Assembly: GCF_000430745.1 (NCBI RefSeq)
Contig: NZ_AUMP01000047.1
Span: 1 to 18,529 of the forward strand
Source: Fictibacillus gelatini DSM 15865
GTDB lineage: Bacteria > Bacillota > Bacilli > Bacillales > Fictibacillaceae
Reading direction: 5' to 3'
DNA: 18,529 nucleotides
In this document: piece after piece, positions 14,361-15,786 of the stretch
Numbering within the stretch: the first letter of the stretch is position 1
Layout of the letters: each line of letters starts with the position of its first letter
The notes under the pieces: model-generated
What the model saw: only the letters and a program-made list of their open reading frames with translations
The model's database searches: none
What the model was told of the DNA's origin: nothing
Made by a program: the position numbers and the translations under genes

Positions 14361-14365
14361 TCATA
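14361..14365. repeat. Target-site duplication (left copy), TCATA
   Basis: It immediately abuts the GGGG end of the left IR and is identical to 15782-15786. Confidence 0.8.
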
Positions 14366-14403
14366 GGGGTAGCGTCAGGGAAATGCGGATTTACAACGGT
14401 AAG
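14366..14403 (+). repeat. Left 38-bp Tn3-family terminal inverted repeat
   Basis: GGGGTAGCGTCAGGGAAATGCGGATTTACAACGGTAAG. From memory it differs at only about 2 positions from the Tn1546 IR (GGGGTAGCGTCAGGAAAATGCGGATTTACAACGCTAAG). Confidence 0.85.
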
Positions 14404-14564
14404 CATTTGATACAAGTCTTATGAGACAGTCAGAAGTCATTTAAAACGCTAATTTCATTATGTCTCAATAAACTCTACTCTATTGGAATTGTGAAGTGAT
14501 ACACTTAAACTAACGTACGCAGGTTTGTTGAATAAGGACTTCAAAAAATACCCTTAATTAAGCT

Positions 14565-14598
14565 AAAAAGTCCTTCTCTTTATTAAGAAGGACTTTTT
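14565..14598 (-). terminator. Terminator downstream of the SMR gene (hairpin with A/T runs on both sides)
   Basis: aaaaagtccttc (14565-14576) pairs with gaaggacttttt (14587-14598). Confidence 0.65.
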
Positions 14599-14604
14599 TA
14601 TGTG

Positions 14605-14982
14605 TTATTCCATTGTCTCATTCATTGTAATAGTTTCGCTTGCTTCATGACCAGATTCTCCATGTCCTGGTCCAAACAAATTCAATATTACAACGCCTAC
14701 AAGAATCAGTGTTATTCCTGCAATGCTAGCCATGTTAAGTTTTTCCTTCCAAACTAAAACTGAAATTACTGTAGTCAAAACAAGTCCTAAACCTGCCCAT
14801 AATGCATATGCAGTGTTTAAGGGGATTGTTTTTAGCGACAAGGATAAAAAGAAAAAACAACCAACGAAAGCTATTATTACCCCTATTGTAGGATAGAGTT
14901 TTGAAAAGCCTTCAGATGCTTTTAATAGGGAAGAGCCAATAATCTCCCCCACTATTGCAAGTGCTAAATATAGATATGACAT
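14605..14982 (-). CDS. Small multidrug resistance (SMR) family efflux transporter, QacC/Smr-like
   Basis: MSYLYLALAIVGEIIGSSLLKASEGFSKLYPTIGVIIAFVGCFFFLSLSLKTIPLNTAYALWAGLGLVLTTVISVLVWKEKLN... shows four TM segments, the conserved membrane-embedded Glu (E13), and close similarity to S. aureus Smr/QacC (..IGSAFLKSSEGFSK..PLN..YA.WAGLGLVLTTV.S...FKE). It has an unusual acidic/His-rich C-terminal tail. Its start overlaps the TetR stop (TAATG). Confidence 0.9.
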   Translation of the reverse strand: MSYLYLALAIVGEIIGSSLLKASEGFSKLYPTIGVIIAFVGCFFFLSLSLKTIPLNTAYALWAGLGLVLTTVISVLVWKEKLNMASIAGITLILVGVVILNLFGPGHGESGHEASETITMNETME

Positions 14983-15533
14983 TATTCGTCCTCCTGAATC
15001 ATGTTTATTAGTTCATCAAAAACTTGTGTTTTTAGTTCTTCATTTAATGGTGCCATTCCAAATATTTCTGAAAACCAAAGACCATCTATGGATAATCTTG
15101 TAATTGTTATTTTGACAGGATCAATTCCATCAGTTATTAACTTTGTATGCAAAATATCGTATCTCTGCCGGAATTCATCTAATAAATCTGGATTAATAAA
15201 CATAGCAGCCATTAGTGCGGAATTTAGATTATTGTTTTCTAAATCGGAAAATGTAGATTTAAGATAAGCCCTATTCCATTTTCCTATTGCGTTATCATCG
15301 TCGTTATTAACTAACGTATTAATGCATTCGAAATAATTATTTGTCCAATCTTCCACCATTCCTTTAATTAATGCTTCCTTGCTAGGAAAATGGTATAATA
15401 ATCCACCTTTACTCACGCCAGCTCTTTGGGTGACTGCCTCTAATGTGAGTTTGACAACTCCTTCTTCTTTTACAATTTCAGATGCAGCAATCAATATATT
15501 TTTTTTCTTATTAGCATGCTTTGAAATAGACAT
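14982..15533 (-). CDS. TetR/AcrR-family transcriptional repressor
   Basis: The N-terminal HTH is ILIAASEIVKEEGVVKLTLEAVTQRAGVSKGGLLYHFPSKEALI. I chose ATG 15533 because GGAGG (15543..15539) lies 5 nt upstream. The track ATG at 15545 is part of that SD. Confidence 0.85.
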   Translation of the reverse strand: MSISKHANKKKNILIAASEIVKEEGVVKLTLEAVTQRAGVSKGGLLYHFPSKEALIKGMVEDWTNNYFECINTLVNNDDDNAIGKWNRAYLKSTFSDLENNNLNSALMAAMFINPDLLDEFRQRYDILHTKLITDGIDPVKITITRLSIDGLWFSEIFGMAPLNEELKTQVFDELINMIQEDE

Positions 15534-15560
15534 AATAACCTCCATAACTTAGATACATAT

Positions 15561-15590
15561 AATATACCGTCTGGACGGTTTTTTTGTCAA
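15561..15590 (-). promoter_or_regulatory. Promoter of the tetR-smr operon with a palindromic operator in the spacer
   Basis: On the minus strand: TTGACA (15590..15585), an 18-nt spacer, then TATATT (15566..15561). The palindrome accgtc-tg-gacggt (15566-15579) lies within the spacer, a typical position for a TetR-family operator. Confidence 0.55.
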
Positions 15591-15743
15591 TCGAATTAAA
15601 GCTCTTATTTAATATCACTCTTTCACATAAAAATAATCCAATAAATTAATCTAAAGATTGTGAAGAAATGTACTTAAAGTAAAGGGAGCTTTAGTTCAAC
15701 AGTCGATTTCTTAAAATCGGCTTTATTTATGGGTGAAAATTAC

Positions 15744-15781
15744 ATTACCGTTGTAAATCCGCATTTTCAGGACTCTACCCC
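15744..15781 (-). repeat. Right 38-bp Tn3-family terminal inverted repeat
   Basis: The reverse complement reads GGGGTAGAGTCCTGAAAATGCGGATTTACAACGGTAAT, which is 33/38 identical to the left IR. Confidence 0.85.
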
Positions 15782-15786
15782 TCATA
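15782..15786. repeat. Target-site duplication (right copy), TCATA
   Basis: It immediately abuts the CCCC end of the right IR and is identical to 14361-14365. Confidence 0.8.

Follow-up and report, generated by a model that had tools for sequence, protein, structure and literature searches.

Boundaries, contents and insertion of the unit

The window, meaning the whole stretch of 18,529 nucleotides analysed here, is contig NZ_AUMP01000047.1 of Fictibacillus gelatini DSM 15865, and it contains at positions 14366-15781 a 1,416-bp unit in which genes for a TetR-family repressor and an efflux pump of the SMR family lie between terminal inverted repeats of 38 bp each, with a direct duplication of TCATA to be read outside them. 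This unit is very probably a non-autonomous mobile insertion cassette (MIC) of the Tn3 family and the Tn1546 clade, which transposed as a unit into a conjugative plasmid and would be mobilised by a helper in trans. Its features are as follows, in order along the window.

14361-14365: TCATA, left copy of the target-site duplication; present only once in empty alleles
14366-14403, plus strand: left inverted repeat (IRL), 38 bp; 36/38 to the Tn1546 repeat and identical in 34/34 copies recovered
14404-14515, plus strand: left 'chassis', a res-like segment with block B, block A and the left copy of direct repeat D1; from colinear alignment to Tn1546-clade intergenic regions
14565-14598, minus strand: terminator hairpin with a 13-bp stem, just 3' of the SMR stop; repeat finder and reading of the hairpin
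14605-14982, minus strand: SMR efflux pump, 125 aa, by its sequence of the Listeria-type 'QacH'; Pfam PF00893
14982-15545, minus strand: TetR-family repressor, 187-aa open reading frame (ORF); TetR_N and TetR_C_28
15561-15590, minus strand: promoter and presumed TetR operator; sequence read and homologue comparison
15657-15682, plus strand: right copy of D1, a direct repeat of the left copy; repeat finder and shuffle test
15683-15743, plus strand: right 'chassis' with a conserved hairpin at 15701-15722; common to TnBt9727 and cargo-less relatives
15744-15781, minus strand: right inverted repeat (IRR), 38 bp, inner end TAAT and not TAAG; repeat finder and read
15782-15786: right copy of the target-site duplication, TCATA; direct read

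IRL reads GGGGTAGCGTCAGGGAAATGCGGATTTACAACGGTAAG (14366-14403) and IRR, as the reverse complement of 15744-15781, GGGGTAGAGTCCTGAAAATGCGGATTTACAACGGTAAT. The two are identical at 33 of 38 positions, have the forms GGGG...TAAG and GGGG...TAAT, respectively, and were recovered independently with the same arms by a repeat finder (pair I1). At the base composition of the window, about 2e-6 inverted pairs matching at 33 or more of 38 positions are expected in 18.5 kb, falling to about 3e-9 once a matching 5-mer is added, such that the ends and the duplication are not explicable by chance. Between the repeats only two ORFs have family support in the ORF list and Pfam, namely TetR and SMR, both on the minus strand. 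Moreover, tblastn found no relative of the Tn1546 transposase (TnpA) or resolvase (TnpR) in the whole window, and Pfam gave no transposase or resolvase domain among the window ORFs scanned.

The original prediction, made from the letters alone, had read the 33/38 repeats and their perfect TCATA flanks exactly so, had confined the contents to TetR, an SMR pump, their promoter/operator and a terminator, with neither tnpA nor tnpR, and had proposed a miniature, passenger-carrying Tn3 derivative. The ORF list, Pfam, tblastn and the reading of the sequence bear out each of these statements, and no transposase has turned out to be part of the unit. Indeed, the structural features of a non-autonomous Tn3-family element are present, in that ends of ~38 bp akin to those of an autonomous transposon and a 5-bp duplication accompany the cargo, the missing transposase and a presence/absence polymorphism, and it is on these that the MIC-type assignment stands. 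Two other assignments were tried and rejected. A strict TIME is short and gene-less, which rules out a unit of 1,416 bp with two genes (only the relatives of 448-686 bp, described below, qualify), and an IS231-type MIC such as MIC231 is ruled out by the ends, which are Tn3-type 38-mers and not the 20-bp repeats of IS231; ends of IS231 type come in only secondarily, where in some copies an insertion has entered IRL.

The insertion can be seen directly at this locus. An empty site, predicted beforehand as TTTTAATGCT-TCATA-GAAAACATTTATCGG with a single TCATA, was found exactly in four assemblies of the same plasmid backbone, the backbone relatives having been obtained by exact-protein look-up of neighbour genes and their junctions then read: SRR10006133 (L042 and L050, one contig), GCA_049843615.1 (L043), SRR27065901 (L045) and GCA_013020265.1 (L048). 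Filled alleles occur in SRR3721239 (L046), SRR29904084 (L044 and L049, one contig) and SRR892540 (L047), the cassette in SRR3721239 being identical base for base to that of the window. An exact 30-mer scan for the empty site gave no match in the genome or metagenome contig collections, and among the 72,556 plasmids of PLSDB nothing comes close to the reconstructed 1.6-kb empty region, of which only one flanking gene is matched, at 66-75% identity. The cassette entered an intergenic TCATA by transposition of the whole unit; what the orthologous position carries in these assemblies is either an empty or a filled allele, and not a block lacking the repeats or the duplication.

The same unit has been inserted independently elsewhere. 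At 99.5% identity or more it is present on 30 PLSDB plasmids from Bacillus cereus, Priestia megaterium, Paenibacillus urinalis, Enterococcus faecalis and Listeria monocytogenes, with further copies in B. mobilis, Brevibacillus, an Oceanobacillus metagenome-assembled genome and metagenomes. These copies occupy at least 13 sites besides that of the window, and the similarity stops at the repeat termini every time. Nine sites, including that of the window, are each flanked by a perfect 5-bp duplication, no two of which are alike (TCATA, TTACA, TTATA, TACAT, TTCTA, TTTTA, GGAAA, AAAGA and TAAGT), and one has a 6-bp repeat, TTAAGT. It is in the light of this distribution that a relic formed in situ has to be considered, in which a full Tn1546-like transposon would have inserted here and lost tnpA and tnpR internally, the 1.4-kb unit never having moved. 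The subterminal region does derive from a Tn1546-clade transposition module, and truncated derivatives in the form of repeat-res-tnpR fragments do exist (L060, L067 and L071), but a relic that never moved is contradicted by the recurrence of the same 1,416-bp unit with its own duplications and by a site seen both empty and filled, with no intermediate. Such an origin is scarcely credible.

Between copies there are no more than seven substitutions, or a difference of 1 bp in length, in 1,416 bp, the window copy having two private substitutions, and it is for this reason that the movement is taken to be recent; judged from sequence comparison, the cassette is recently mobile. Against this it might be held that the cassette is now immobile, its divergent IRR (33/38, TAAT) being non-working and its distribution being due to plasmid spread and recombination after an old burst. 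Most copies do lie on a few self-spreading small plasmids, for example a 4,697-bp RepL/MobV plasmid found in at least 14 loci, and in some copies IRL is split by an IS231-like element. However, both the similarity of copies at different sites and the coexistence of empty and filled alleles indicate recent movement, and IRR is identical in all copies, from which it follows that the transposition burst used this very repeat. Present immobility is therefore improbable. The suggestion of the original prediction that the element offers a compact route for moving an efflux cassette between replicons is in keeping with the many plasmids and the other sites on which the same unit is found.

Some side observations belong with these copies. 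An IS231-type element lies inside IRL at two cassette sites. In L018 (1006-6000), L007 (~1-1503) and L036 (~1-54 and 4463-4490), ends of this type (ATGCCCATCAACTTA) follow GGGGTAGCGTCA in the left Tn3-type repeat, which they abut or split; this 12-bp sequence is duplicated in L018 and L036, the L007 stretch not reaching the far side of the insertion sequence. Such an insertion would disable the cassette ends. An IS231-type insertion sequence added to the 6.5-kb cassette plasmid appears to account for the 8.2-kb plasmids of B. cereus. The 4,697-bp plasmid, with its TTCTA site, is also found as whole contigs labelled Streptomyces, Nocardioides, Microbacterium, Herminiimonas, Rhodanobacter and Mycolicibacterium, of 4,792 bp (L023-L030, L032, L034, L035 and L038) or 4,824 bp (L024 and L037), all with an identical or near-identical allele and one extra substitution in L037. 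These contigs correspond to the plasmid with an overlap of 95 or 127 bp, several are from one sequencing project and the 4,824-bp pair has ~4.6-4.7x coverage according to the contig names; the pattern suggests that a Bacillus-type plasmid came in as a contaminant from the laboratory or from reagents, and not a true host range. In PLSDB, NZ_CP097352.1 (28,180 bp, ~6 x 4,697 bp) holds the cassette six times and NZ_CP118107.1 (25,177 bp, ~2 x 12,589 bp) twice, and the two are probably concatemeric assemblies or multimers of small cassette plasmids.

The efflux cargo and its presumed regulation

The pump matches Pfam Multi_Drug_Res (PF00893) over profile positions 1-93 of 93 with E = 5e-28 and 97.9 bits, against a cut-off of 23.7, and the membrane glutamate of the family is read from the translation as Glu13, in helix 1, within the motif VGEIIG. 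The protein is identical to the common allele of the cassette, other copies of which are named QacH by PGAP and AMRFinderPlus. It shares 122 of 125 residues with a copy on the Brochothrix plasmid pBT469-1, and 110 of 122 (90%) with the pump of a Tn6188-like element. Its scores against two NCBIfam models are lower than their cut-offs, being 145.8 bits for NF000384, the staphylococcal QacC/G/H/J equivalog (cut-off 160), and 138.8 bits for the QacH model NF000279 (cut-off 205), and it has a C-terminal extension of 18 residues relative to the 107-aa Qac models. By these comparisons the pump is assigned to the Tn6188-type 'QacH' of Listeria and not to the staphylococcal QacC/G/H/J equivalog. Tn6188 qacH raises benzalkonium tolerance in Listeria.

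The cargo is found on other vehicles also. A homologous block, at 86% nucleotide identity, is carried in Macrococcoides by a Tn6188-like transposon of the Tn554 type, and others are on a small Brochothrix plasmid (90%) and a Rossellomorea plasmid (84%); a more distant homologue (70%) is on the emrC plasmids of Listeria. The Macrococcoides element has the same succession of terminator, pump, TetR and operator as the cassette. Tn6188 (Tn554 family, tetR-qacH, Listeria) has a cargo homologous to that of the window element, but it is provided with three Tn554-type transposition genes and has neither Tn3-type terminal inverted repeats nor a 5-bp duplication.

The TetR ORF extends over 187 codons from an ATG at 15545. 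An alternative ATG at 15533, preceded by GGAGG, would give 183 aa and is the likelier start; RefSeq copies of tetR are annotated at both 552 nt and 564 nt. Residue 39 is Thr in the window and Ala in the common allele, a single private substitution. The tetR stop codon overlaps the start codon of the SMR gene (TAATG). Upstream, on the minus strand at 15590-15561, is a promoter of the form TTGACA-18 nt-TATATT, which agrees with the consensus at 11 of 12 positions, and a 14-bp palindrome, ACCGTCTGGACGGT, lies at 15566-15579, mostly within the promoter spacer and taking in the first base of the -10 box. The palindrome and the -35 box are kept in the Brochothrix and Rossellomorea cassette homologues, and the stretch compared of the Tn6188-like copy has the palindrome together with a TATAAT -10 box. 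The palindrome is presumed to be the TetR operator, and the layout is that expected of a TetR-repressed efflux operon; as for an autoregulated operon of this type, a TetR_N domain is joined to a ligand domain, TetR_C_28, and a promoter-overlapping palindrome is kept in three cassette homologues. On this basis TetR would repress through the palindrome in its own promoter and cationic compounds would release it, upon which the translationally coupled SMR pump would be turned on to export quaternary ammonium disinfectants.

Among the copies of the cassette there are promoter/operator variants at window positions 15562 and 15569 (element positions 1197 and 1204). In the allele of the 4.7-kb plasmid and in related copies the operator palindrome is broken, reading ACCGTCCAGAAGGT on the minus strand, whereas that of the window is intact; in the allele of plasmid pLIS26 the -10 box TATATT has become the consensus TATAAT. 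Such variants may reflect selection for higher expression of the pump.

The cassette thus constituted would be an efflux determinant for quaternary ammonium disinfectants, a phenotype and substrate range that we infer from the relatives of the pump and from the hosts. The strains harbouring pLIS12 and pLIS26, two Listeria plasmids on which the cassette was described in 2021, are resistant to benzalkonium chloride, and the authors state that the function needs confirmation (PMC8508797). Alternatively, the SMR/TetR pair may export some other cationic metabolite, any tolerance of biocides being incidental. The scores under the NCBIfam Qac equivalog cut-offs and the 18-residue extension are in keeping with this possibility, as is the fact that the cassette phenotype has not been directly tested (PMC8508797); on the other side stand the 90% identity to the Tn6188-type pump and the provenance of the hosts, which include hospital, food-plant and clinical isolates as well as the benzalkonium chloride-resistant hosts of pLIS12 and pLIS26. 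We therefore think a different primary substrate rather unlikely.

Kinship with Tn1546 and proposed mobilisation in trans

The original prediction had put the identity of IRL to the Tn1546 repeat at about 36/38. This is exactly what is found on the vanA plasmid CP066209, on which the 38-mer GGGGTAGCGTCAGGAAAATGCGGATTTACAACGCTAAG lies 37 bp from the 3' end of a 988-aa Tn3-family tnpA, upstream of a resolvase gene and vanRSH; IRL matches this repeat at 36 of 38 positions and IRR at 33 of 38. IRL also matches at 36/38 both ends of a 4.9-kb Listeria transposon of the Tn1546 clade, the TnpA of which is 94% identical to that of Tn1546, and a repeat beside the gerX genes on B. cereus pAH187_270. Sequences close to the 38-mer are present on 748 plasmids. 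The connection to the Tn1546 lineage proposed in the prediction is accordingly upheld by the ends, and also by the subterminal homology described next. In this regard Tn1546 and the window element share the 36/38 ends, the 5-bp duplication and a segment homologous to the tnpR-tnpA intergenic region, but Tn1546 is autonomous, with a 988-aa TnpA, a 191-aa serine resolvase and the van operon, all of which are missing from the window element.

Just inside IRL, window 14404-14515 (~110 bp) is colinear with the entire tnpR-tnpA intergenic region of four autonomous relatives, namely Tn1546, the Listeria transposon and two metagenomic transposons with TnpA and TnpR that share 93-98% identity with the Tn1546 proteins. 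In local alignment the segment scores 44, as compared with 20.8 +/- 2.7 (maximum 34) for shuffled sequences. The segment contains block B, TTTGATACAAGTCTTATGAGAC (14408-14429), of which 21 nt are identical to the metagenomic transposons and one base removed from Tn1546, and which is situated 4 bp from IRL, exactly at the expected start of the tnpR ribosome-binding site. Block A, CAATAAACTCTACTCTATTG (~14466-14485), is a degenerate form of a Tn1546 palindrome that is perfect in Tn1546 itself, being a 12+2+12 arrangement of TATCAATAGAGT-AC-ACTCTATTGATA (on the opposite strand, with a central GT). The left chassis is kept in TnBt9727 and in the cargo-less relatives of 448-686 bp. In Tn3-family elements with a serine resolvase the resolution site, res, is located in the interval between tnpR and tnpA, site III adjoining tnpR (PMC7157771). 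Because the segment is colinear with a complete intergenic region of this kind, a res-like site appears to be retained, and the cassette probably keeps a res usable by a helper resolvase. The statement of the original prediction that there is no obvious res site should be revised accordingly, 14404-14515 being homologous to the tnpR-tnpA intergenic region, although a res is an optional feature of non-autonomous Tn3-family elements. The right chassis was also tried as a second res copy, but it scores 24 against the Tn1546 intergenic region, with shuffles at ~21, and is not significant.

In metagenomes, truncated Tn1546-clade derivatives occur at L060 ~4701-4835, L067 6071-6589 and L071 ~2092-2226. 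In each a terminal repeat lies ~100 bp from the block-B 21-mer, followed in L067 by a partial tnpR, and the transposase is lost on that side.

Tn1546-clade tnpA genes, at 90% nucleotide identity or more, occur on 296 plasmids, among them 123 from Enterococcus, 122 from Bacillus, 17 from Staphylococcus and 17 from Listeria, such that potential helpers are common in the host genera of the cassette. In outline, a resident Tn1546-clade TnpA would bind both 38-bp ends, and replicative copy-in would give the 5-bp duplication and a cointegrate, which would then be resolved either by homologous recombination of the host or by the serine resolvase of the helper acting on the res-like segment. Since the cassette and Tn1546 share their transposition signals, any cell with a Tn1546-type element is a potential launch pad.

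The mobilising enzyme might instead be a Tn3-family transposase from outside the Tn1546 clade, or a relative specific to a certain host range, for example that of the gerX-adjacent repeat element on pAH187_270, in which case the Tn1546-like ends would be look-alikes. The breadth of the near matches to the 38-mer (748 plasmids) leaves room for such an enzyme, as do the 36/38 repeats beside gerX on plasmids of B. cereus AH187 and J75, which have no Tn1546-type tnpA within 6-7 kb, and a distant Tn3-family tnpA fragment (29% aa) 150 bp from the cassette copy on LR962259. Set against these are the specificity of the res-like region to Tn1546-clade intergenic regions, with an exact 21-mer shared with elements of 93-98% TnpA identity, and the distance of the Tn3-family TnpA of pXO1, presumably that of TnXO1, which is only 41% identical to Tn1546 TnpA. 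A helper from outside the clade is for these reasons an unlikely one. As to the fragment itself, LR962259 is a 149-kb conjugative plasmid of E. faecalis, in which the sequence (L008 3071-3967) is separated by ~150 bp from the right end of the cassette and has its 29% amino acid identity to Tn1546 TnpA over the C-terminal 300 residues.

Several observations weigh against a cassette of the Tn1546 clade that is mobilised in trans and confers disinfectant efflux. IRR departs from IRL at five positions, among them the inner change of TAAG to TAAT, and three sites are without a clean duplication, the flanks agreeing at four of five positions in L004 and not matching in L009 (the same site as L068) or in L036. 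No helper tnpA was found co-resident with a copy of the cassette: pLIS26 is without a Tn3-family transposase, and no tnpA is present in the 64 kb read, in two stretches, of the 324-kb plasmid pJ75_1 of B. cereus J75, on which there are repeat-like sites and whose strain carries the cassette on pJ75_3. The check for a Tn1546-clade tnpA called for at the outset thus succeeded for plasmids of the shared genera and failed for pLIS26 and the parts of pJ75_1 read. Moreover, mobilisation by a helper TnpA, and possibly TnpR, in trans is deduced. A mapped res site of Tn1546 was not found in the literature within reach, and the term 'res-like' therefore rests on the Tn3-family rule for the position of res. 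The right end of the cassette resembles over ~65 bp the cargo-side end of autonomous relatives, whereas the orientation of the res segment predicts the transposase-side end; the same mismatch rules out an origin by one simple deletion of a Tn1546-type transposon. Finally, the pump falls below the curated NCBIfam cut-offs for the staphylococcal QacC/G/H/J group, and the function of the cassette still needs confirmation according to its 2021 authors (PMC8508797).

Comparable elements, the chassis family and the host plasmid

The element is already known, as is its class, and it is not, therefore, a new principle. In Chmielowska et al. 2021 the cassette carried by pLIS12 and pLIS26 is classed as a mobile insertion cassette of Tn3 type, with ~37-bp repeats akin to those of a Tn3-family transposon, 5-bp direct repeats and copies of 99% identity in E. 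faecalis and C. difficile (PMC8508797), and a sister element, TnBt9727, had been noted in 2005 (PMC1196294). The pLIS26 cassette is the same 1,416-bp unit with identical repeats, four substitutions relative to the window and a TTACA duplication; the window copy differs in its two private substitutions and in lying in a different, previously unsampled conjugative backbone. In the portion of PMC8508797 available the repeats are compared with those of Tn7129 (32/37) and not of Tn1546, and neither a res-like region nor empty sites are mentioned. What is added here is the proof from empty sites, a longer list of insertion sites, the connection with TnBt9727 and the gene-less relatives and the likely retention of res, which bears on whether TIME-type elements carry functional resolution sites (PMC13367494).

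Comparison with TIMEs (PMC4133298; PMC13367494) is instructive in this respect. Like the window element they are non-autonomous, with Tn3-type repeats and 5-bp duplications; they are mobilised in trans, as is proposed for the window element, and in IS101 and TIME244 a res-like site also appears to be retained. The cargo-less relatives of 448-686 bp fit the TIME description. TIMEs are, however, gene-less, and those linked to resistance have so far been paired composites in Gram-negative bacteria, whereas here a single element of the Bacillota holds cargo between its own ends. MIC231 of B. cereus likewise has a passenger gene between transposon ends, is mobilised in trans and is from the same host group (PMC1196294), but its ends are the 20-bp repeats of IS231, of the IS4 family, with a different transposase family and chemistry.

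The relatives form a family of elements that share the left end of the cassette (81-84% over ~165 bp) and its right end (70-81% over ~85-150 bp). It consists of a 1,010-bp element with a GNAT acetyltransferase gene on plasmid pBT9727, found also with a clean TTATA duplication in a metagenome (L058), and of gene-less or nearly gene-less elements of 448, 626, 669 and 686 bp. The GNAT element is the one named TnBt9727, for which a Tn1546-related repeat and a nested IS231L have been described (Van der Auwera et al. 2005, PMC1196294). It agrees with the window element in having Tn1546-related repeats, the left 165 bp (81%) and right ~125-150 bp (~70%) in common, a repeat bracketing its cargo and no transposase; it differs in its length, in having a single acetyltransferase gene, on the other strand, and in the splitting of its left repeat by an IS231-type insertion in pBT9727. 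When the IS231-bounded segment is removed from pBT9727, the true duplication of TnBt9727, ATATA, is restored, which fits the nesting of IS231L in PMC1196294.

In both cargo-bearing members the cargo is bracketed by the direct repeat D1, ATTGTGAA-N8-ACTTAAA[C/G]TAA, which is found in the window at 14488-14513 and 15657-15682, extendable to ~48 bp (14466-14513 vs 15639-15682), and in L018, the GNAT element, at 6125-6150 and 6863-6889. Its score in the window is 31, as compared with 18.2 +/- 2.2 for shuffled sequences; in the GNAT element it is marginal, and in the four small elements it is not significant by the shuffle test. A reading of D1 as a promoter is ruled out by the spacing of the hexamers (direct read). 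D1 may mark a junction of cargo exchange. Tentatively, and with more doubt than confidence, the Tn1546-clade miniatures of the Bacillota might be seen as a modular chassis, made up of a repeat, a complete res, a D1-bracketed cargo slot, a terminator hairpin and a second repeat, which would hijack both the TnpA and the TnpR of a helper and would swap its cargo (none, GNAT or TetR-QacH) at the internal direct repeats. If this were true, the chassis would be a Tn3 derivative that is parasitic in both steps, and would constitute a general platform for gene capture in Gram-positive bacteria, and no one-off product of a deletion.

As regards wider significance, the cassette is a compact, self-regulated efflux unit that has recently moved among small mobilisable and conjugative plasmids and several genera, the bacteria concerned in hospitals and food plants being the B. 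cereus group, Priestia, Paenibacillus, E. faecalis and L. monocytogenes, and it is in this respect useful for surveillance, in the tracking of biocide-tolerance genes. The backbone into which it has inserted in the window (1-14360 and 15787-18529) is a small replicon of conjugative type, contigs of the empty form measuring 22.4-22.5 kb, on which a VirD4-like coupling protein is encoded at 6625-8463, alongside a YukC-like protein, a TrbL_4 protein and one with an NYN domain. In PLSDB nothing exceeds 43% identity to the coupling protein, its best matches being from Halobacillus, Bacillus and Peribacillus, and on sequence grounds the backbone is assigned to a poorly sampled plasmid lineage of Bacillaceae type.

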